Shown here: one piece after another, positions 32,881 through 51,783 of the stretch
How positions within the stretch are numbered: position 1 is the first letter of the stretch
Layout of the letters: each line of letters begins with the position of its first letter
Origin: an uncultured Clostridia bacterium
GTDB taxonomy: Bacteria > Bacillota > Clostridia > TANB77 > CAG-508
Length of the DNA stretch: 64,000 nt
Direction of reading: 5' to 3'
Assembly: GCA_947631745.1 (NCBI GenBank)
Contig: CANRMM010000001.1
Span: 1,367 to 65,366, forward strand
Translations under genes and position numbers: made by a program
Notes under the pieces: generated by a model
What the model was told of the DNA's origin: nothing
What the model saw: the letters and a program-made list of their open reading frames with translations, nothing else
Database searches by the model: none

Positions 32881-33000
32881 ATTTTATTTTCCCTTTTTTT
32901 ATATTTCTTAGGCTTCTAAGTACAACCTATTTAAGTCTGTCCCTCAAGTGACAAAAGTGTCACTTTAAAGAACGTCCCCAAAGTGACAAAGTGACAAATC
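32881..33000 (+). repeat. REP-like repeat, copy 1 (about 120 bp), containing GTGACAaaagTGTCAC.
   Basis: Near-identical to 43240-43385. Shares the GTCCC(C)AAGTGACA...GTGACAAAGTGACAA core with 50703-50766 (reverse) and 51706-51783. Confidence 0.6.
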
Positions 33001-35077: not shown

Positions 35078-38077
35078 TTATTTTTTCACTTCTTCCATCA
35101 CGAAGAATTCTAATATATCCAATTCTTTTAAGTCATCATACTTTTCAATTTGCATACCACATTCATAACCTTTTGTCACTTCTTTTACATCATCTTTAAA
35201 TCTCTTTAAAGATACAAGTTTTCCTTCATGAATAACAATATTGTCACGAATGACTCTAACTCCTGCATTTCTTTCTACTCTTCCGTCTAATACATAGCAT
35301 CCTGCAATTGTCCCAACATTTGATACTTTGAAAGTCTGTCTTACTTCTGCATTTCCAATTACGTTTTCCTCAAATACTGGATCTAACATTCCTTTCATAG
35401 CAGCTTCTACATCTTCAATAGCTTGGTAAATAACAGAATACTGCTTAATTTCAACTCCATCTTTTTCTGCCATGTCCTTCGCACTAATATTTGGTCTTAC
35501 ATCAAATGCAATAATAATTGCCTTTGCTGCTTTTGCAAGTTGAACATCAGACTCATTAACAGCTCCAACGGCAGAGTGAATAACTTTTACCTTAACTTCA
35601 TCATTTGATATTTTTTCTAATGATTGTTTTAATGCCTCTGCTGTTCCTTGAACATCTGCTTTTACAATAATTCCTAATTGTTTTAAGTTTTCATTTTCCA
35701 TTTTTTCAAATAAATTGTTAAGAGTAACTTTATTGCCCTCTGTCATTGCCTTTTCTCTTTCTTCACGTTTACGCTTTTCAATTAAATGCTTTGCCATTTT
35801 TTCATCTTTTACTTCATAGAAAGTATCTCCTGCTTCAGGTACATTAGTAAGTCCCATAATTTCAACTGGTGTTGATGGTCCTGCCTTTTTAATCTTCTGA
35901 CCTTTATCATTTCTCATTGCTCTAATTCTACCAATTGAAGTTCCTACAACAATTGTATCTCCTACATCTAGAGTTCCTCTTTGTACTAACATAGATGCAA
36001 TTGGACCCTTTGCCTTATCTAATCTTGCTTCAATAACTGTACCTTTTGCCTGTTTATTTGGATTTGCTTTTAATTCCCTCATGTCTGAAACTAACAATAC
36101 CATCTCTAATAAGTTGTTTATATTAAGTCTTTTCTTAGCAGAAATTGGTACGAAGATAGTATCTCCTCCCCATTCCTCTGGTACTAATTCATATTCCATT
36201 AGTTCTTGCTTAATTTTATCAACATTAGCTCCTGGTAAATCAATTTTATTAATAGCTACAATAATTGGAATTTCAGCAGCCTTAGCATGATTAATTGCTT
36301 CTATTGTTTGAGGCATAACACCATCATCTGCTGCTACAACAAGAATAGCAATATCTGTAATTTGTGCACCTCTTGCTCTCATACTTGTAAACGCCTCATG
36401 TCCCGGTGTATCTAAGAAAGTAATTTCTCTATCATTAACATTTACTTTATAAGCACCTATGTGTTGAGTGATACCTCCCGCTTCACCTTCGATTACATTT
36501 GTACTACGGATTGCATCCAATAAAGAAGTTTTACCATGATCTACGTGTCCCATAACAACAACAACAGGTGGTCTTGGTTGTAATTCCTCTGGTGAATCCT
36601 CTGTCTCATCAAATAAGATATCTTCCTCTTTTACTTCTTCCTTCTTTGTTGCAGTAATACCAAATTCAGATGCAACTAAGTATGCTGTATCAAAATCAAT
36701 TGAATTATTAATAGTTGCCATTATTCCATAGTTAAATAATTTTTTAATAACTTCTGCTGTTGTCTTTTTCATTTCTGCTGCTAAATCTTTTACTGTAATG
36801 TTTTCAGGAATTACAATCTCTTTTAATTCAAAAATTTTCTGTTTATTTCTTTCTTCCTCATTTTTCTGAATTTTTTTCTTGTTTTTCTTTCCTCGTGCAG
36901 TAGTTAAATCATAATATTCAAGCATTCCTCCATCTTGTTCTTCAAACATATTTGACAATCTATCTACCTGCTTTAAATCCTTTAATTTTCCATCATCAAA
37001 TTCTTCAAATCTTCCTGACTTTCTTGATTTAGTAGCTTTTTTGATAGATTTTTGTTCATCATATTTGCTATTTGCCTTCTGTTTTTCCATTACTTTATTT
37101 GAATAGTCTCTTTGCAATTCTTTTTCTACAACTTCTGTAGTCATAATGTTTTTAATATTTTTGTCAATGCCTTTTTCATCTAGTGGTCTATTACGATTAA
37201 ATTCTCTATCTCTATTTCCATTTTGATTATTATATCCATTATTATTGCGATAATTGTTTCTACCATCATTGTTGTTTCTATAATTATTTCCATTCTGATT
37301 ATTACGATAATTACTCCTATTATCCCCATTTTGATTATTTCTATAACCATTATTATTTTGATTACGATAATTATTATTACGATTGTCAAAATTTCTATTG
37401 TCATGATTATGATTATCAAAATTTCGATTTACTTGTTGTTCTCTTGGTCTATAATTATTGGTATTATGAATAACATCATTTTTCTGTTCTTTTTCTTTAA
37501 CAGTATTATTTTCCACTTTTACTTCCGGTGTCATATTTTTTTCTTCTACTTTTACTTCCTCTTTCTTTTCTTCTTTAACTTCCTTTATAGGTTCTTTCTC
37601 TTCTTTTATAACAACTTCTTTCTTTTCTTCTTTTGATTTATCTGATTTTATACCAAAAAGTTCACTAACAGTAAGTGGTTTAGTTTGTTTATTACGATAA
37701 ACAATATTGTAATCCTTACTATTATTTCTCTCTACAAATCCTACATCTTTTCGATTCGTTTCAATCTTTTTCGATGACTCCTGTTTTGTTTTTTCTTCTT
37801 CATCTATAATAACTTCTCTTCGTATAATAACAGGCTTAGACTCCTTTTTTACATTACCTGCATTCTCTTTTTTAACAGTCTCTTTTTCCTTCTGCACTTT
37901 ATCATTTTTATCAAAAGCCTCTTTTATTTTATCTACTTGTTCTTCTTCTATATTACTTAGATGACTTGTTACTGCAATTCCTATTTTTTGAGCCTTTTCT
38001 ATAATTTCCTTACTTGTTACTCCTATTTTTTTTGCTAATTCATGTATTTTCATCTTACCCAATAATTTCACCCCCAT
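35078..38077 (-). CDS. infB: Translation initiation factor IF-2 (999 aa) with an Asn/Tyr/Arg-rich low-complexity insert.
   Basis: G-domain [16 protein letters not shown] and full IF-2 similarity. Confidence 0.95.
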
Positions 38078-40536: not shown

Positions 40537-41304
40537 TTAATACTCATTATCATGTAGCATCGTTCCATTTGCATAGAAATTATCTAAATCTTCTACATCT
40601 ATTGTATATAAATCTGTTGGCTCACTATTTAAGTTTATATCGATACTTTCTATCTCTTTCCATCCTTCTTCTGTCTTTACTACATCATCATTTTCTAAAT
40701 ATTCATATCCTTCATACCTTGATAATGACTTCCAGCCTTCTTTTGTATATATTGGATGATACATATTTTGTACTAATGTACTTCCGTCTTTAAATTTAAT
40801 TGTCACAATATCTGTTGCATCTTCATGTATATATGTTCCTGTTACTTTTCTTAGTTCATTTCTTTCTGTTTCTTCGTTGTATGCTACTACTGTATCTCCT
40901 ATTTTTAAATCTTCTATTGCTTTTATATGTCCTTCTACGTCTATTAATACTTGTGAACCTGCTACAATACATTTATTGTGTACTAATATACTATCTAATC
41001 CTACAAAGTAGTCGTGATTATCCTCTACTATCAAATTATATACTTTTATTGTTTCATTGTTTTCTATTCTTTCTATCTTAGTTATCTTCTGTTCTACATT
41101 ATTACTATTAATTAATATATCTCCTACTTTCAAATTACCTGCTTCTGTCCATCCTTTACTCATTACATAAAATGGATGATTTGGTGTTACTTCTACATCT
41201 GCATTTTCTGTATATATTTTTAATAGATTTCCGCTATAATTATGAACTAAAGTTTTTAATACTTCTTTTACTTCTATTTCACGTGTGTCATTAACTCCTC
41301 CTCA
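40537..41304 (-). pseudogene. Degenerate tandem Hint (Hedgehog/intein, BIL-like) domain cassette. TGA sits at the Cys1 position of the first Hint domain.
   Basis: Open frame after TGA (41302-41304): GGVNDTREIEV...TPNHPFYV...VYNLIVEDNHDYFVGLDSILVHN-K-CIVAGSQVLIDV...LYTIDVEDLDNFYANGTMLHDNEY-stop. The only in-frame ATG (41163) lacks an RBS. Confidence 0.6.
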
Positions 41305-41329
41305 AATAGTTCAAACCATGGCGAAATCT

Positions 41330-41428
41330 AAAAATATCACCTGATACAACTTCTCTTTCATAATATAGCTGTCAATCTATAGCAAAATTTAAAAATATCA
41401 CCTGATACAACTTCTCTTTCATAATATA
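41330..41428 (-). repeat. Two 38-bp perfect direct repeats (41330-41367 and 41391-41428) straddling the stop codon of ORF 41358..43232.
   Basis: aaaaatatcacctgatacaacttctctttcataatata occurs twice. Copy 1 encodes YYEREVVSGDIF in the ORF frame; copy 2 is in a shifted frame. Confidence 0.6.
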
Positions 41429-43232
41429 ATTCTTCGTTGTCTGCTGACCAAGTTAATCCTTCCCAATCGCATTCATAATAATAACCTCTACCAAAATTAA
41501 CCGACGTTCTTTCTTGTGTAGTCACTTTAACACTTCTAGCATTCAAAGGAACACTAATCTTCTTACTTTCTGGTTCAGAGCTCCAATTAAATGCTCCAGG
41601 TGTAAAAGGAATTGATATTGTTTCACTCGATAATTCACTTCCATCACCATCATACCAAGTCACTAAATATTCAAATGGAGCATAAACAACACTATCCCAG
41701 TCATTATTGTCTTCGGCCCAAAGTCCCCTCGCCAAACCATTCAAAACCTCGCTATACTCACCTTTAATTGGAAACCCTCCATCCCAGGTTCTACGCAATT
41801 CATATTTTTCTCTATATTCTGGACTACACTGTTTCGACCATTTTTCAGCCAAAGGATCGTAAACACTTTTGTAATACAAATCCTCACAAAATGCTTCCAT
41901 AACGAGCGACATCAGCTCGTCACCGGCGTCAGCCCCCTCCTCGATTACATCCATAATATCATAGTATAGTTTGAAATCATGGTAATAATATGCATTATTC
42001 ATACATTTTTGAATGTAATCCTTGGTAAATAATTCGGAATCACCACCATAAGTTACAGTCGTAGCATCTTTAAGGCACGAAACCACATAAGCACTAAAAT
42101 CACCATTGAAATGTTCATTAATAAAATCCTGTTCATGCGAAGAGACGTAATCGTCGACCAAACCTTCCCAACCATCACAGTACTCCCAGTCCAAGTTTAT
42201 TAAATAGTCATCCAAAATAACTTCTCTTTCTATTATAATATATGGCGTTACATCTGCTTCTACCTCCGGTAATTTTTCTCCTTTTGGTATTACTGGTTTT
42301 GGAGTTCCTGTTAACTCTCCTATTCTATTTATTATTATTTCCTTTGCTTCTACATCTCCTTGTGTTACTGTGTATGTATATTCTATTGTTGCTGTTCCGT
42401 TTGGCTCTAATGAATCTATAATAAATTCTCCGTTCTTGCAACTTACCCCTTCACTCATACTTGATACTTTTATTTCTTCATCTCCTGGAAAATATGTTCC
42501 ACTTCCTGCTGTTAGCGTATCTGGTATATGAATATTCTTCATTGTTACTTTGCCTGTATTTTTTACCGTTATTGTCCATTCTATTTCTTCATTCGCTATA
42601 TAATATTCTCCATTTTTTGGAGTTGATGTTACCTCTTTTGTTATCTCAAAATTTGAATTGTCATTTTCTACTATGTTCTTTATTCCATCTACTAATATTC
42701 CTAATTCTCTATTTTCTCTTGTATCTTTTCCATAATACATTACTCTATATGTTTTGCCTTCATCTGTTTCTGCTAACTTTATTGTTTCTTCTGTTTTTGC
42801 TACCTTTGTTATACTTCCTGTCCCTGGTGCTACTTCTTCTAATTTATATACATCTGTACTTCCTTCTCCATTTCCTAATGCTAGCCTTGTTCCTGCTAAT
42901 GTTTCAACATTTATTTTATATACTCCATCTGTTCCTATATCTTCAACTATTCCTCTATCTTGCAAATAATCTATTAAACTTGTTTCCTCTTTTCCAACCC
43001 TTCCTGCCCAGTAATCCGAATATGCCATCTGTATCCTTTCCCACACTGTTGCATGAGTATGCTCTACTTTCCCTCTATCTGCACTTGAAATTAATCCATT
43101 CTCTCCAAATACTGCATTAATACTTATTACTGCCAAAATAATTAATATTACTATTGTTACCACTAATGCTATTAGTGTTATTCCTTTATGCTGTTTCAGC
43201 ACTCCTTTTATTTTCCCTGTTCTTTCTTTCAT
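41358..43232 (-). CDS. Secreted protein with prepilin-like N-terminus, conserved paralogous domain, DUF11-like repeat and a compositionally foreign C-terminal module.
   Basis: 624 aa. KG|ITLIALVVTIVILIILAVISINAVFG. About 160 aa shared with ORF 46127..47371 (about 90% nucleotide identity at the 5' end). TITVKNTGKVTMKNIHIPDTL is a DUF11-like motif. Confidence 0.6.
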   Translation of the reverse strand: MKERTGKIKGVLKQHKGITLIALVVTIVILIILAVISINAVFGENGLISSADRGKVEHTHATVWERIQMAYSDYWAGRVGKEETSLIDYLQDRGIVEDIGTDGVYKINVETLAGTRLALGNGEGSTDVYKLEEVAPGTGSITKVAKTEETIKLAETDEGKTYRVMYYGKDTRENRELGILVDGIKNIVENDNSNFEITKEVTSTPKNGEYYIANEEIEWTITVKNTGKVTMKNIHIPDTLTAGSGTYFPGDEEIKVSSMSEGVSCKNGEFIIDSLEPNGTATIEYTYTVTQGDVEAKEIIINRIGELTGTPKPVIPKGEKLPEVEADVTPYIIIEREVILDDYLINLDWEYCDGWEGLVDDYVSSHEQDFINEHFNGDFSAYVVSCLKDATTVTYGGDSELFTKDYIQKCMNNAYYYHDFKLYYDIMDVIEEGADAGDELMSLVMEAFCEDLYYKSVYDPLAEKWSKQCSPEYREKYELRRTWDGGFPIKGEYSEVLNGLARGLWAEDNNDWDSVVYAPFEYLVTWYDGDGSELSSETISIPFTPGAFNWSSEPESKKISVPLNARSVKVTTQERTSVNFGRGYYYECDWEGLTWSADNEELYYEREVVSGDIFKFCYRLTAIL

Positions 43233-43239
43233 TTATTTT

Positions 43240-43385
43240 CCCCTTTTCTTTTATATTCTTAGTTTTCTAAGTATAACCTATTTAAGTCTACTTATTTAAT
43301 TTTATTCCTTTAAGTCTGTCCCTCAGGTGACAAAAGTGTCACAAATAGGAACGTCCCCCAAGTGACAAAGTAACAAAAATGACAG
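43240..43385 (+). repeat. REP-like repeat, copy 2 (about 145 bp, with an internal tttaagtct duplication).
   Basis: See 32881..33000. Lies between the start of ORF 41358..43232 and mutS2. Confidence 0.6.
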
Positions 43386-43461
43386 GCTACCAAAAATAGT
43401 CTGTCATTGAATATACTAAACAAAAGGCTTTATTGTCCCTTCTTATTTCCATAAAATTACT

Positions 43462-43486
43462 TGTGTGTGTGTGTGTGTGTGTGTGT
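43462..43486. repeat. (TG)12 dinucleotide microsatellite.
   Basis: tgtgtgtgtgtgtgtgtgtgtgtgt, read directly. Intergenic, between divergent genes. Confidence 0.85.
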
Positions 43487-43734
43487 ACTCTCGCAATGGT
43501 TTCAGGTTTTGCCATTTTTTATTATTCCTCTTTCTTTCGTTTATACTTATTTTATACCAATAATATTAACTTTTGTCAACATTGAAATTTATAATATTTT
43601 TTACCCCTGTATACAAGATAATCCTTCTTTTCTTTACAACACTAAAAAGAATACCTTATTAAAATTATGACATTTTCAACAATATTACTATAAAATATGT
43701 TATAATAATATCATTATTTATTTTGGAGGATGTT

Positions 43735-46077: not shown

Positions 46078-46084
46078 TTATGTA

Positions 46085-46122
46085 AAAAAGGAATTTAGTT
46101 TTGCAAAACTAAATTCCTTTTT
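46085..46122. terminator. Bidirectional rho-independent terminator between convergent mutS2 and ORF 46127..47371.
   Basis: 19-bp perfect palindrome AAAAAGGAATTTAGTTTTG/CAAAACTAAATTCCTTTTT. Confidence 0.7.
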
Positions 46123-46126
46123 TACT

Positions 46127-47371
46127 TTATTCAGTCCATATTAAAGGATCTTCCTTTGTTCCCTCTCCTTGTACTCTATCAATAGCTGTTGGATTAACTA
46201 TAAAAATTGGTCTTAACTTATTCGTAGCCACATTGCTTCTATAAAAATTTTTATAATAAAAATTTGAATATATACTAAAGCCAGCAATCGTCTCCGGATT
46301 ATAGGTTCTACTTAGAAAATATTCAAGGCCATAATATTCACCTGCACCAGACGTCTTTTGTGCTCTAGAAGACACCCAATAATTTGATTTACTAGTTGTA
46401 TCGAAAATATCAACTCCCAATGATTTCATATTTTGCATCTGTAAAAAATCAATATTAGAATTGCTATCTACATCTTTAATCATTGTATCACCAACTGTCC
46501 ACTTTCCTGAAGTTGCTTTTTCTGCTAAATTTACTAAATCTTTTGATTCAGAATATGGATCATTTGGCACACTTCCTACACATCTTGCACTAGTTACATA
46601 CATATTATTACTTTCATTTACATATTTTTTTGCCTCATTATTCAATGTTTCTATAGCACTATTATATGATTCTACTGCTAATTGCATTTGTTCTGAAGTT
46701 CCACCCTGAGTTAAATCACAATCATTTCCAATCCCAATGTTTTCTCCTACTACATCTGTTGCTATCATTTGTATTCCATAATTAGTTTTATTTGTTTTAT
46801 TATATTCTTCGTCATACATTACTACGCACTCTATTGTTGTACCATTATATGGCAATTGCACATATTTTCCTACTTTGAATTCACTTGCAGTTTGAGGCAA
46901 ATCTTTTTTCTTATCTCCTTCTAGCACTCCCAAGTTTCTAGGTCCACTTTCTCCATAATAATTTACACTATATGTCTTATCTCCATTTGCTTCTACGGTT
47001 TCTTCTAATTTATATACATCATTTTGGTCATCTGTTCCATTTCCTAATGCTAACTTTGCTCCTGCTAATGCTACTGTGTTTATTTTATATCCTCCATTAC
47101 TGGTCTGTTCTGTTCCTATTATTTCTTTTTCTTGTAAATATGATATTAAATCTTTTTTCTCATTTGCTACTTTCCCTGCCCAGTAATCTGAGTATGCCAT
47201 CTCCATTCTTTCCCATACTGTTGCATGTGTATATTCTACTTCTCCTTTTTCTGTACTTGAAATTAACCCATTTTCTCCAAACACCGCATTAATACTTATT
47301 ACTGCCAAAATTATTAATATCACTATTGTTACAACTAATGCTACTAAGGTTATTCCTTTTTCTCTTTTCAT
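46127..47371 (-). CDS. Secreted protein with prepilin-like N-terminus, paralog of 41358..43232 with an unrelated C-terminal region.
   Basis: 414 aa. MKREKG|ITLVALVVTIVILIILAVISINAVFGENGLISS... RBS AGGAGGA immediately downstream of ppiB. Confidence 0.6.
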   Translation of the reverse strand: MKREKGITLVALVVTIVILIILAVISINAVFGENGLISSTEKGEVEYTHATVWERMEMAYSDYWAGKVANEKKDLISYLQEKEIIGTEQTSNGGYKINTVALAGAKLALGNGTDDQNDVYKLEETVEANGDKTYSVNYYGESGPRNLGVLEGDKKKDLPQTASEFKVGKYVQLPYNGTTIECVVMYDEEYNKTNKTNYGIQMIATDVVGENIGIGNDCDLTQGGTSEQMQLAVESYNSAIETLNNEAKKYVNESNNMYVTSARCVGSVPNDPYSESKDLVNLAEKATSGKWTVGDTMIKDVDSNSNIDFLQMQNMKSLGVDIFDTTSKSNYWVSSRAQKTSGAGEYYGLEYFLSRTYNPETIAGFSIYSNFYYKNFYRSNVATNKLRPIFIVNPTAIDRVQGEGTKEDPLIWTE

Positions 47372-47388: not shown

Positions 47389-48213
47389 TTAATATGACAC
47401 TGTCATATATTGTTGCATCATTTGTTGATACCATGCATTAACATCAAATGGCTCTATTGTTTCTGGAACACCATAATCTATACCATATGTTTCTACAGAT
47501 ATACTTTCAATAACAACATCTTTTTTAGGTTTATCAGATGGAATTTCATTTCCATCATCATCTTTTGGAGCTTCCTCACCCTCTTTTAAATCTTCACTTC
47601 TATAATAAACCTCTACATTTTGAATTTTTTCAATAATATCATATCCTTCAATAACTTTACCAAATCCTGCATAGTTACCATTTAAAAAGTCATCATCTGC
47701 TGTTGTAATAAAGAATTGTGAACCTGCTGAATTGTATCCCTCTTCCGCTAAACTAGTACTTATTGTATTTCCATAATCACCTCTTGCCATTGAAATAACA
47801 CCTTTTTCATGTCTTAGTGTATTTTGAAAATCATTAGCAATAAATTCACCTTTTATATTATATTCTCTATCATCTGCCACATTATCCATAATATCACTTA
47901 GTTTTGGAGAATCATCTCCATTTCCATTTTTCGAACCTCCTTGAATCATAAAATCCGGAATAGTTCTATGGAAAGTTAATCCATCATAATATCCTCTGTT
48001 AGCTAAACGAATAAAATTAGCTACTGTATTTGGTGCCATTTCTGGATACAATTCTATTTTTACTGTACCATAATCCTTTATTTCCATAGTAGCAATTGGA
48101 TGAGGCACATTTAAAGTTGCTTTCTGTACAATTCCATACGTTACAAATCCAATTCCTCCTAATACCAATATAATTGCAATTACTAATATAACTGTTATGA
48201 TTTTCTTTTTCAT
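47389..48213 (-). CDS. ppiB: Membrane-anchored cyclophilin-type peptidyl-prolyl cis-trans isomerase.
   Basis: N-terminal TM helix. Cyclophilin motifs FHRTIPDFMIQGG and FFITT. Confidence 0.85.
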   Translation of the reverse strand: MKKKIITVILVIAIILVLGGIGFVTYGIVQKATLNVPHPIATMEIKDYGTVKIELYPEMAPNTVANFIRLANRGYYDGLTFHRTIPDFMIQGGSKNGNGDDSPKLSDIMDNVADDREYNIKGEFIANDFQNTLRHEKGVISMARGDYGNTISTSLAEEGYNSAGSQFFITTADDDFLNGNYAGFGKVIEGYDIIEKIQNVEVYYRSEDLKEGEEAPKDDDGNEIPSDKPKKDVVIESISVETYGIDYGVPETIEPFDVNAWYQQMMQQYMTVSY

Positions 48214-50690: not shown

Positions 50691-50702
50691 TTTTCCTCCT
50701 TC

Positions 50703-51783
50703 TTGTCACTTTGTCACTTTGGGGACGTTCCTTTTTGTGACACTTTTGTCACTTGTGGGACACTCCTTCATTCTTTAGATATCGCTCTATATATCATCCT
50801 TTTATTAATACCTAAAATTCTAGCTAGTTGTTCTCTATAAATGCCATCTATTTTACTAGCCTCTTTAATAATTTTATCCCTATACTCTGGCTTGTACCTT
50901 TGTATACTTAGTAAATTATCTATATGTAATTTTCTTCTAATTTCTACTATTGCTTCTTCATCATTTAGTCTAGTTATATTTTCAAATTCTTTTTCATCAT
51001 ATTGTTCTTCAATATTACTCATATTATAGTTTTTCCATAGTTCGATTGCTCTTTGCCTATCCAAACTAAAAATAGATAAAATAAATTCAATATCTGTGAT
51101 TTTTTTATTTCCTACATATTCCTGATAACTGCTCCATTGATATGAACTCATTTCACCTATCCCATCTTTTTGAGGATTTCGATGAATATATCTCTGTACA
51201 TTTAACAAGTAGCTCTCACTTTCAACACTTTTGCTATTAAATCTATTAAAAAAAAGATGACCAATCCTATCATATTTTTTATTAAAATATACTGCATAAG
51301 ACGTCGCTAAGCTTTGCATAATTTTAGAAAGCATATTTTCATTATCTTTTATGAGCATATGAACATGATTACCCATTAAAACATAAGCATATAATTGATA
51401 TTTATATTTATCTTTTGTATCTATAATTTTTTCTATAAACTTTTCTCTATCGTCATTATCAAAAAATATTTCTTGACTATTAATTCCTCTGATAATAACA
51501 TGATACACATTTGTAAAAGATTTTTTACTTTTTCTTGAACTACGAGGCATTATACCACCTTTCCTTTCTTTAAGGTTGAATGCCCCCGTATTCAACTTTT
51601 ACATAAATAAAAATATAGCATAAATTTCACAATCATGCTATATTTTTCACAAAATTTATATATATATTTCAAATATATTTCAAATTTTATAATTAATATT
51701 ATTAAGAGTGTCCCCAAAGTGACAGTTTTGTCACTAAAAAGAACGTCCCCAAAGTGACAAAGTGACAACTAAAGTGACAAAAG
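50703..51783 (-). mobile_element. IS200/RAYT-like unit: Y1 HUH transposase gene flanked by inverted copies of the REP-like repeat.
   Basis: Repeat copy 3 (50703-50766, reverse) and copy 4 (51706-51783, forward) bracket ORF 50768..51550. Confidence 0.6.
50768..51550 (-). CDS. Y1 HUH transposase, IS200/IS605-TnpA / REP-associated tyrosine transposase-like, with a C-terminal HTH extension.
   Basis: NVYHVIIRG..., HUH motif GNHVHMLI, catalytic-Tyr motif RYIHRNP. Start taken at MPRSSRK (ATG 51550) after GGAAAGGTGG. Confidence 0.7.
   Translation of the reverse strand: MPRSSRKSKKSFTNVYHVIIRGINSQEIFFDNDDREKFIEKIIDTKDKYKYQLYAYVLMGNHVHMLIKDNENMLSKIMQSLATSYAVYFNKKYDRIGHLFFNRFNSKSVESESYLLNVQRYIHRNPQKDGIGEMSSYQWSSYQEYVGNKKITDIEFILSIFSLDRQRAIELWKNYNMSNIEEQYDEKEFENITRLNDEEAIVEIRRKLHIDNLLSIQRYKPEYRDKIIKEASKIDGIYREQLARILGINKRMIYRAISKE

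Follow-up and report, generated by a model that had tools for sequence, protein, structure and literature searches.

What kind of protein keeps a nearly constant N-terminus and carries unrelated sequences behind it? Two genes, here called g1 and g2, raise this question in the stretch of 64,000 nucleotides that we analyzed (the window), from an uncultured low-GC gut Clostridia bacterium. A first-pass annotation had likened them to polymorphic toxins and contact-dependent effectors. Both ORFs were found at the coordinates given there, each on the minus strand (Table 1).

Table 1. Features of the g1 and g2 loci, in window coordinates
Feature	Position	Strand	Description	Basis
PT-HINT remnant	40537..41301	-	C-terminal half of one Hint domain, then one complete Hint domain	
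61-nt tandem duplication	41311..41428	-	copies 91% identical, spanning the g1 stop codon	
g1	41358..43232	-	624 aa; probable modular pilin-like surface protein: leader, pilin-like module, CLIPPER stalk, orphan C-region	ORF, Pfam
g1 orphan C-terminal region	41361..42287	-	aa 316-624; predicted helical part, then beta part	
g1 CLIPPER/CLIPPER_2 (DUF11/DUF7507) domain	42333..42653	-	aa 194-300; isopeptide-type Ig-like stalk domain	Pfam, TIGR01451
g1 pilin-like module	42684..43181	-	aa 18-183 (ITLIALVVTIVILIILA...); helix, GENG hinge, second helix, small beta-sheet; part in common with g2	
g1 leader peptide	43182..43232	-	aa 1-17 (MKERTGKIKGVLKQHKG); last residue is the invariant Gly(-1)	ORF, family leader alignment
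REP-like element	43310..43382	.	between the upstream ORF and g1	
Small ORF upstream of g1	43381..43515	-	own Shine-Dalgarno sequence; includes the (CA)12 tract	
(CA)12/(TG)12 dinucleotide tract	43462..43485	.	230 nt upstream of the g1 start	
Perfect 22+22 nt palindrome	46082..46125	.	between convergent mutS2 and g2; likely bidirectional terminator	
g2	46127..47371	-	414 aa; probable modular pilin-like surface protein: leader, pilin-like module, lectin-like module	ORF, BLASTP, AF2
g2 C-module	46130..46879	-	aa 165-414; enlarged C-type-lectin-like domain, unnamed family	
g2 pilin-like module	46916..47353	-	aa 7-152	
Cyclophilin-type peptidyl-prolyl isomerase	47389..48213	-	membrane-anchored; immediately upstream of g2	Pfam Pro_isomerase (E 3e-42)

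A common carrier with a prepilin-like leader

The N-termini of g1 and g2 are 52% identical over 199 aa (BLASTP; E value, 3e-45). Counted from the Lys-Gly codons, the first 100 nt of the shared region are 90% identical, as the first-pass annotation had reported; identity is 85% over 200 nt and reaches background level past ~400 nt. The first 34 shared codons differ at nine synonymous positions and one nonsynonymous position, indicating that the identity of the 5′ ends reflects purifying selection on the protein. These counts rule out recent gene conversion. Similarity extends as far as the final strand of the predicted N-terminal module (about residue 183 in g1 and residue 152 in g2). Past this point the divergence is complete, also as described: BLASTP found no similarity between the C-terminal parts. 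The window holds no further copies of the leader. No inverted or direct repeats suited to shufflon-type switching of the C-terminal modules were found apart from the coding similarity itself, and we dropped that mechanism.

Both proteins have a class III-type layout, in which a short basic leader ends in Gly(-1) and a hydrophobic helix of ~20 residues comes directly after it. The N-termini read MKERTGKIKGVLKQHKG/ITLIALVV... in g1 and MKREKG/ITLVALVV... in g2. The carrier helix is nearly invariant (ITL[IV]ALVVTIVILIILA) and is a homolog of type IV pilin alpha1-N. Behind it lie a conserved G-E-N-G hinge, another helix, and a small beta-sheet. Gly(-1) is present in 110 of 110 distinct family leaders; Ile+1, Thr+2, Leu+6, and Thr+9 are also invariant, even where the search pattern permitted alternatives. 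The segment before the Gly is 7 to 54 aa long and hypervariable, and it accommodates inserted GC-rich hairpin sequence. A boundary this sharp, from hypervariable to invariant sequence at the Gly, is expected of a processing site.

Bacterial type IV pilins characteristically have Glu at position +5 (Glu5). Both g1 and g2 have Ala at this position, and among the 110 leaders position +5 is Ala in 102, Thr in 4, Ser in 3, Val in 1, and Glu in none. The first-pass annotation had described a prepilin-like N-terminus with Ala in place of Glu+5, and profile comparisons bore this out. The family profile aligned in register with the class III signals of MshA (E value, 0.003) and geopilin (E value, 0.007), and Pfam N_methyl was the top leader match (16.4 bits for g2 and 14.3 bits for g1, below the cutoff of 21.2). 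The predicted N-terminal module appears to resemble the minor pseudopilins GspI, EpsI, and XcpV and type IV pilins; in the AF2 model of g2 it consists of helices at residues 6 to 31, 36 to 67, and 75 to 81 and then five strands up to residue 151.

Other searches with g1 and g2 gave less. TIGR02532 matched neither protein, and GspG and PRK10574 appeared only at E values of >0.1. The IPR012902 signature, by which modular pilins have been surveyed, scored only below its threshold in both proteins. A phmmer search of PDB sequences returned only a marginal match to the MshA leader, and PHROGs returned only marginal leader matches to two small phage protein families. Foldseek found no significant match in the PDB, which we counted against a pilin-like adhesin. 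No Pfam or NCBIfam model reaches its cutoff on the Glu5-less subfamily, and a literature search with leader motif strings found no matches. Standard pilin models miss this family because Glu5 is absent.

Outer modules and their relatives in gut Clostridia

The C-terminal module of g2 carries the motifs CxVxY, YGIQ, SYNxAIETLNNEA, ARCVGS, D.N, YW.SSR, and LRP. Its predicted fold matches solved C-type-lectin-like domains of the type found in the C-terminal region of Lcl and the N-terminal region of IgA peptidase. Identity is only 15 to 16% to these structures, 9qa6 (IgA peptidase of Thomasclavelia ramosa, N-terminal domain) and 8q4e (Legionella Lcl, C-terminal domain); zinc ligands have been described for the IgA peptidase domain. 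A scan of GTDB representatives gave a best match of 31% identity, and the domain is found again at no fewer than 40 loci in related metagenome-assembled genomes (MAGs).

The outer part of g1 begins with the DUF11-like domain noted in the first-pass annotation, which scored above the Pfam cutoffs (DUF7507/CLIPPER_2, 43.4 bits, cutoff 27; DUF11/CLIPPER, 35.5 bits, cutoff 24.6) and matched TIGR01451 (24.7 bits). CLIPPER (DUF11) domains form isopeptide-stabilized stalks in surface adhesins, although some DUF11 domains lack the bond (PMC12617251). An intact g1 paralog of 873 aa also has CLIPPER/CLIPPER_2 domains. The region behind the stalk is an orphan. A word-index search with it found no matches, and an exhaustive HMMER search over 1.84e9 representatives returned only the region itself and one repeat protein (E value, 7e-5). 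One Listeria-Bacteroides (Flg_new)-like repeat unit lies in its beta part (about aa 519 to 545). The AF2 model made without an alignment had a pLDDT of 46.6, too low for a fold search. The carrier module (~150 aa) is joined in the two proteins to outer parts that are unrelated: g1 has a CLIPPER stalk and an orphan region, and g2 has an enlarged C-type-lectin-like head.

MAGs of related uncultured gut Clostridia have this leader in front of BspA-type leucine-rich repeats (LRR_5), DUF285, GH5 cellulases, and lectin-like modules. The modules that it bears span 220 to 1,381 aa, and the genes often lie three to five in tandem. Each genome has numerous paralogs, most of which lie away from pilus operons, and some carry bulky enzymes. 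Most members outside the g1/g2 genome consist of helix and linker only, with no pilin beta-sheet. For proteins of this kind, membrane anchoring fits better than incorporation into a filament. Three sister paralogs from the same sample as g1 (P0001, P0002, and P0003) are frameshifted or truncated, and P0001 and P0002 have a conserved junction sequence (...TATAGTATTTCTCGGAAC...).

A prepilin peptidase, which the first-pass annotation had suggested looking for, was not found in the window, but one related MAG with four anchor loci encodes a Peptidase_A24 protein (71.9 bits) two genes 3′ of an anchor gene. Neither the window nor the flanks (up to 10 kb) of 39 of 40 related loci contain an A24 peptidase, a PilB-type ATPase, or a pilin of the classical GFTLIE type. 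Motif scans that covered the window plus ~590 kb from related loci likewise revealed no filament ATPase or platform protein nearby (PilB/PilC, ComGA/GB, or TadA/BC). Among viral contigs, the g2 family had no relatives and the leader profile matched only eight loci, indicating that the leader family is not mainly phage borne.

Toxin, decaying gene, membrane anchor, or displayed adhesin

We conclude that g1 and g2 are probably lineage-specific, Glu5-less modular pilin-like surface proteins, and most likely adhesins. The polymorphic-toxin reading would make the N-terminus a trafficking domain, the C-termini toxins, and Hint a pre-toxin processing module. A constant N-terminus with unrelated C-termini suits it, and so do an orphan region in g1, as at many toxin tips, and the tandem duplication near the g1 end, whose EREV(V/I) motif recurs at aa 337 of g1 and suggests past recombination. 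The Hint remnants reported earlier are also there, directly 3′ of g1 (PT-HINT, E value of 4e-22 in ORF 40537..41163, and the TIGR01443 intein C-terminal motif). However, they do not form an in-frame PT-HINT between a stalk and a toxin. They belong to a separate, N-truncated ORF whose frame, open upstream to 41301 with no start codon, is not that of g1; by three-frame translation nothing follows the last Hint motif, and rimP is next. Fusion of g1 to Hint by loss of one 61-nt copy would require a second frameshift and was ruled out, and related loci have no Hint homologs. No toxin or immunity family of Pfam, NCBIfam, or PADLOC matched g1 or g2. Profile searches and structure prediction, both proposed as checks, gave a lectin-like C-terminal module in g2 and neither a toxin signature nor relatives for the C-terminal region of g1. 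Nor does an immunity-like small ORF follow either gene: g2 is followed by the palindrome and convergent mutS2, in a gap too small for one, and g1 by the Hint fragments and rimP. The lectin-like fold is kept across its many loci, and sister genes bear LRR, DUF285, and GH5 modules. What holds of the earlier proposal is a conserved export or anchoring N-terminus with interchangeable C-terminal modules; toxin function we regard as highly improbable. We also think it improbable, if less so, that g1 is decaying, that is, a longer surface protein cut by the 61-nt duplication and parted from a phase-variable 5′ end, with degenerate sequence as its C-terminus. This would account for the duplication across the stop codon, the Hint fragments downstream, the orphan region, and the state of the three sister paralogs. 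It would also account for the small ORF upstream of g1. That ORF is homologous at the nucleotide level to the leader of family member P0070 (locus L050), in which a (CA)12 tract (6037 to 6061 of L050) lies in frame, and it is now separated from g1 by a REP element and by stop codons in every frame. Against decay, the 624-aa ORF is intact, and an identical g1 protein is encoded on five metagenome contigs from several samples. Moreover, the ORF would end within ~10 codons of its present site with or without the duplication, and comparison with the intact 873-aa paralog shows good conservation of the N-terminal module and the CLIPPER domain.

A less remote alternative, to which we give limited weight, is a plain signal anchor: the helix would be an uncleaved type II membrane anchor derived from a pilin ancestor, with no prepilin peptidase or filament, and the proteins would be membrane-tethered ectoproteins. 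The lack of Glu5 in every member is consistent with this, as are the lack of type IV machinery in the window and beside 39 of the 40 loci, the GH5 enzymes and very large proteins among the cargo, and the absence of a pilin globular domain from most members. A mere anchor, however, does not need the same five residues from Gly(-1) to Thr+9 across unrelated ectodomains, or a switch from hypervariable leader to invariant helix precisely at the Gly; the neighboring membrane-anchored cyclophilin has an unrelated transmembrane segment. The in-register alignment with cleaved class III signals and the A24 peptidase of a related MAG also argue against a plain anchor. As Glu5-less modular pilin-like proteins, g1 and g2 would insert N-in/C-out, and an A24 prepilin peptidase would cut the leader after the Gly. 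The mature protein could then cap a type IV filament or a short pseudopilus as a tip subunit without Glu5, with filament assembly, or could stay held in the membrane by its pilin helix, as archaeal bindosome proteins do. Domain shuffling at the boundary after the carrier module may have produced the differences between paralogs, which would give many binding or enzymatic heads a single export and display route.

Known systems and flanking elements

The first-pass annotation knew of no family with this N-terminus. Modular pilins have in fact been described and are widespread; they include two Streptococcus sanguinis proteins, PilB (vWA module) and PilC (lectin module), and a location at the pilus tip has been proposed (Raynaud et al. 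2021, PMC8179133). They resemble g1 and g2 in combining a class III-type signal, a small pilin module, a short linker, and a bulky module (lectin-like in g2), with many architectures on one carrier. As in modular pilins, the extra modules are not specific to pilus biology (lectin-like in g2, CLIPPER in g1, and LRR_5, DUF285, or GH5 in sister proteins). They differ from the present family, in which Ala, Thr, or Ser (and Val once) replaces Glu5 throughout, IPR012902/PF07963 is not reached, each genome has many paralogs mostly off pilus operons, and many members lack the pilin beta-sheet. The present family is best read as a Glu5-less, lineage-expanded form of this known modular pilin design, for which there is no Pfam or NCBIfam model at cutoff.

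A minor pilin without Glu5 that caps the tip is also known (PMC10191384). The family nevertheless differs from GspK and the GspI-J-K tip complex: there is no sequence-level relationship, no GspI/J partners or secretion ATPase are adjacent, and the host here is Gram positive. Sulfolobus sugar-binding proteins of the bindosome carry class III signal peptides (PMC3047682), and the likeness is that a class III-type signal free of the bacterial Glu5 rule displays many diverse nonfilament surface proteins. That system is archaeal and has dedicated Bas assembly machinery, and its cargo consists of ABC-transporter binding proteins instead of adhesin or enzyme modules. With the CLIPPER fibrillar adhesins (PMC12617251), g1 and the 873-aa paralog have CLIPPER/CLIPPER_2 in common, but g1 has a single CLIPPER, and its anchor is an N-terminal pilin-like helix in place of an LPXTG/sortase or OmpA-type C-terminal anchor. 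Polymorphic toxin systems with PT-HINT are alike in the constant N-terminus, the variable C-termini, and the PT-HINT sequence adjoining g1; they differ in having toxin domains and immunity genes, and the Hint fragments here are truncated and out of frame.

A wider proposal is tentative, and we would sooner doubt it than rely on it. Uncultured low-GC gut Clostridia may have a dedicated display pathway that relies on Glu5-less class III signals and is the bacterial equivalent of the archaeal bindosome. Its A24 peptidase, aided or not by a minimal type IV filament machine, would process and present unrelated surface proteins, dozens of them in each genome, among them lectin-like heads, LRR proteins, isopeptide stalks, and GH5 enzymes. 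Some would be turned on and off, either through a conserved leader cassette that bears (CA)n or through recoding where carrier and module join. If leader processing takes place as suggested here, a pilin-type signal would be the main route of surface decoration for a whole clade of uncultured gut Clostridia, replacing sortase or working beside it. Surface-proteome predictions for these organisms would then change, for adhesins, LRR proteins, and glycoside hydrolases alike; the modular-pilin concept would widen, and the archaeal bindosome would have a bacterial parallel. For the window, the toxin annotation is removed in favor of two probable adhesins. The lectin-like head of g2 would be a fold relative, by structure prediction, of an unexplained N-terminal domain in a gut IgA peptidase.

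The ORF and Pfam survey of the window agreed with the flanking genes named in the first-pass annotation (disA, radA, ppiB, and nusA): disA and radA lie upstream of ppiB, rimP and nusA lie downstream of g1, and convergent mutS2 lies between the paralogs. Strict translational coupling of g2 to ppiB, as had been claimed, does not fit the 17-nt spacer with its own AGGAGG between them, although the two genes are probably cotranscribed. This arrangement is absent at P0077, the closest full-length g2 homolog. The (CA)12/(TG)12 tract upstream of g1 is the sole such repeat in 655 kb (the window and related loci), and copies of the REP-like element flank a Y1 transposase gene (RAYT-type, Y1_Tnp) at 50768..51595.

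The carrier common to g1 and g2

The paralogs g1 and g2 share a pilin-homologous, strongly constrained leader and helix without Glu5, on a small pseudopilin-like carrier to which unrelated surface-type modules are attached. BLASTP aligned residues 12 to 208 of g1 with residues 1 to 177 of g2 (52% identity; E, 3e-45) and gave no alignment beyond them. The 5′ ends are nearly identical, as the first-pass annotation had claimed, with 90% nucleotide identity over 100 nt when counted from the Lys-Gly codons; identity fades to background past ~400 nt from these codons. Of the first 34 shared codons, 9 carry synonymous differences and only 1 a non-synonymous one; the leader and helix are under strong purifying selection as protein. 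Recent gene conversion as the source of the identity was rejected on the same counts.

The leader, a short basic segment ending in Gly(-1), is MKREKG in g2 and MKERTGKIKGVLKQHKG in g1, and these are its only copies in the 64 kb. It is followed by the helix ITL[IV]ALVVTIVILIILAVISINAVF, a G-E-N-G hinge, and ~115 more residues. Pfam N_methyl was the best match on the leader yet was below threshold (16.4 and 14.3 bits versus a cutoff of 21.2), and NCBIfam gave only marginal pseudopilin matches on the N termini. When aligned by a g2-family profile, the leader stays in register with class III signals, both that of the MshA major pilin (E, 0.003) and that of geopilin (E, 0.007): Gly, Ile, Thr, Leu, Ile, Ala of the family face Gly, Phe, Thr, Leu, Ile, Glu. 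The proposed prepilin-like signal with Ala for Glu+5 is thus borne out. An AlphaFold2 model of g2 (14-sequence alignment; mean pLDDT, 73) has helices at residues 6 to 31, 36 to 67, and 75 to 81 and five strands, the last ending at 151. The likeness of g1 and g2 stops at this last strand of the predicted module; we therefore infer shuffling at the domain level.

Identical g1 and g2 proteins are encoded on a 68-kb contig of a gut-type metagenome assembly (ENA ERZ27249187) and in sister assemblies, and the ~150-amino-acid N-terminal module of g1 and g2 is confined to the sample set of this organism. In ERZ27249187, contigs with comparable coverage carry an intact 873-amino-acid paralog (N-terminal module, three CLIPPER domains, and a C-terminal domain), further tandem copies of the module, and two paralogs (P0002 and P0001) in which a conserved +1 frame change splits the module ORF from a CnaB/CLIPPER stalk ORF. 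The genome thus has at least six genes on this carrier. In P0002 and P0001, the module ORF closes with a conserved tail, KYSISRNRIRR[VI]NKLEI, and the +1 frame continues (VFLGTESEELTNWKLN[VI]KFD...) into the stalk ORF, which itself carries no signal. Conservation across the ~70-nt junction exceeds that of the flanking sequence; the junction would reflect programmed +1 frameshifting or else belong to a duplicated pseudogene. A sortase gene (L043, 14199-14933) lies ~4 kb from tandem pilin-like/CLIPPER paralogs of the same assembly.

Features of the window and of related loci
Feature	Position	Strand	Remarks
g1	41358..43232	-	ORF, 624 aa
g2	46127..47371	-	ORF, 414 aa
PT-HINT ORF	40537..41163, frame open to 41301		C-terminal half of one Hint and one complete Hint
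61-nt tandem duplication	41311-41428		91% identical; spans g1 stop codon
(CA)12 tract	43462-43485		230 nt upstream of g1
Upstream ORF	43381-43515	-	44 codons; own Shine-Dalgarno sequence; holds (CA)12
Y1-transposase (RAYT-type) gene	50768-51595		flanked by inverted REP-like elements 50697-50765, 51702-51768
More REP-like copies	43310-43382, 32969-32990		intergenic
A24 prepilin peptidase of related MAG	L036 16045-16797		250 aa; Peptidase_A24 only match
Frame-changed paralogs P0002, P0001	L046 10001-12119, L043 10001-11402		same assembly as window contig

Attached modules and the toxin reading

Residues ~165 to 414 of g2 belong to an unnamed family (18 matches in a word-index search), in which the closest homolog, P0077, has the same complete architecture. 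The family profile weakly matched residues 105 to 272 of IgA peptidase (E, 0.014), inside a region that, according to its authors, is an N-terminal domain of enlarged C-type-lectin-like type and is not needed for catalysis (PMC12237041). The DUF11-like repeat claimed for g1 is CLIPPER/CLIPPER_2 (formerly DUF11/DUF7507; residues 194 to 300, above Pfam cutoffs), an isopeptide-stabilized stalk unit of fibrillar adhesins (PMC12617251). Residues 316 to 624 of g1 had no relatives in the word-index search; exhaustive HMMER against 1.84 billion representatives returned only g1 itself and one Listeria-Bacteroides-repeat protein, matched over one unit of ~27 residues. The single-sequence AF2 model of this region is unreliable (pLDDT, 46.6). 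Profile searches of the C-terminal regions, as earlier proposed, thus leave g2 lectin-like and g1 316 to 624 a near-orphan, with no toxin family detected.

The first-pass annotation had read g1 and g2 as polymorphic-toxin-like proteins followed by Hint-domain remnants. The remnants are real: the PT-HINT ORF is an open frame lacking a start codon that stops straight after the last Hint motif and is followed by rimP. It is, however, N-truncated, with no in-frame link to g1, and Hint homologs were absent from all related loci. Fusion through loss of one 61-nt copy was considered and rejected; with one copy removed, g1 still stops within about 10 codons, and the frames would not join. We therefore conclude that the Hint fragments are relics of an earlier arrangement, outside working g1. 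With toxin, immunity, and defense families also undetected in g1 and g2 (Pfam, NCBIfam, and PADLOC), a toxin function is very improbable. The duplication encodes the motif YYEREVV, whose similarity to IIIEREVI at g1 residue 337 suggests past recombination at this motif.

The leader family and its probable processing

A search with the N-terminal 153 amino acids found 75 proteins, all from metagenomes or MAGs and nearly all without a Pfam domain; in most, likeness is confined to the leader, helix, and GxNG(I/L) hinge, with divergence thereafter. A g2-family scan of the GTDB representative genomes gave 40 loci (up to four per MAG), every one of them in a MAG of uncultured gut Clostridia or of Clostridium sp. 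The suggested search for further leader ORFs was productive, yielding 53 in these loci and the window, of up to 1,381 amino acids and frequently in tandem arrays of 3 to 5 genes. Their C-terminal modules include BspA-type LRR (E, 1e-46), DUF285 (E, 7e-36), GH5 cellulase with DUF285 (E, 6e-55), and g2-type lectin-like modules, some duplicated or behind long Ig-like repeat regions. No leader ORF in the scanned loci ends in LPXTG.

Among 110 distinct leaders, Gly(-1), Ile+1, Thr+2, Leu+6, and Thr+9 never vary, including at positions for which the search pattern permitted alternatives; Gly+26, Asn+28, and Gly+29 are nearly invariant. Position +5 is Ala in 102, Thr in 4, Ser in 3, Val in 1, and never Glu. 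The segment before Gly is hypervariable (7 to 54 residues) and takes even GC-rich hairpin-like insertions and a (CA)n tract. In P0081 and P0090, an in-frame GC-rich hairpin-like insert is translated VGAGLVSAH or VGTGLASAQ; such insertions suggest that the leader tolerates repeat elements. Eight viral-classified contigs (L051 to L058; IMG/VR) encode proteins with the same leader; these copies may be prophage-borne, or the contigs may be host DNA placed in viral bins. Weak matches to the leader (E, about 1e-3 to 2e-4) also come from two small PHROG families without known function.

Pilin-type processing and display of g1 and g2 is, in our judgment, rather probable: an A24 peptidase would cut the leader after Gly, and the product would be displayed at the cell surface. 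Because a hypervariable leader turns abruptly into an invariant helix at Gly, a processing site seems favored. An uncleaved anchor would hardly explain this switch, and the adjacent membrane-anchored cyclophilin carries an unrelated transmembrane segment; we consider such an anchor unlikely. The proposed search for a prepilin peptidase succeeded in part. Neither motif scans nor phmmer detected an A24 peptidase, a PilB-type ATPase, or a classical GFTLIE pilin within the window or in the vicinity of 39 of the 40 loci. At the remaining locus, L036, whose MAG has four anchor loci, a protein that scores 71.9 bits against Peptidase_A24 (cutoff, 26.5) is encoded two genes downstream of an anchor gene. 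It has no DiS_P_DiS match at an E of ≤0.01 and, by eye, no PilD-type cysteine pairs, and so may cleave without N-methylation. Its neighbors form a housekeeping cluster (HAD phosphatase, Xaa-Pro peptidase, and EF-P). Gram-positive genomes commonly hold candidate pilins outside pilus operons (PMC3244431).

After cleavage, two fates are conceivable. Type IV filament subunits pair their Glu5 with the N-terminal amine of the next subunit up, and a Glu5-less subunit caps the tip complex (PMC10191384); g1 and g2, with their pilin-like globular module, would fit the tip, a location also proposed for modular pilins with bulky modules (PMC8179133). Alternatively, the pilin helix would hold the protein in the membrane, which better fits the many relatives with only helix and linker and with enzymes as cargo. 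Class III signals serve archaeal bindosome proteins in this way (PMC3047682).

The claim that no family with such an N terminus is known holds in that no curated Pfam or NCBIfam model reached its cutoff on the leader and a full-text literature search for leader motif strings found no paper, but modular pilins, which likewise carry bulky modules on a pilin carrier, are already described (PMC8179133). Apparently new in the leader family are the universal loss of Glu5 from an otherwise near-invariant mature N terminus, the wide range of cargo, and the expansion within a single clade of uncultured gut Clostridia.

Genomic surroundings

The window has ~30% GC and uniformly negative GC skew. The claimed translational coupling of g2 to ppiB does not hold strictly: a 17-nt spacer with a Shine-Dalgarno sequence of g2's own follows the cyclophilin gene. 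P0077 lies in a different neighborhood; linkage of g2 to ppiB-disA-radA is therefore not conserved. A perfect 22+22-nt palindrome at the end of g2 is common to convergent mutS2.

Within 655 kb (window and loci), the (CA)12 tract upstream of g1 is unique as a non-AT dinucleotide repeat of at least 6 units. The leader of P0070, from a different metagenome (L050, 6001-6061), includes in frame a nucleotide-homologous cassette (Shine-Dalgarno sequence, ATG, ~10 codons, and (CA)12-13), and slipped-strand mispairing there would switch expression on and off. In g1, a REP element and stops in every frame separate the cassette from the gene. The inverted REP-like elements around the Y1-transposase gene are 63 to 66 nt long, and the REP-element 22-mer had 5 matches versus 0 expected. 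The IF-2 homolog (35078-38077) has a long Asn/Arg/Tyr-rich low-complexity insertion in its N-terminal region.
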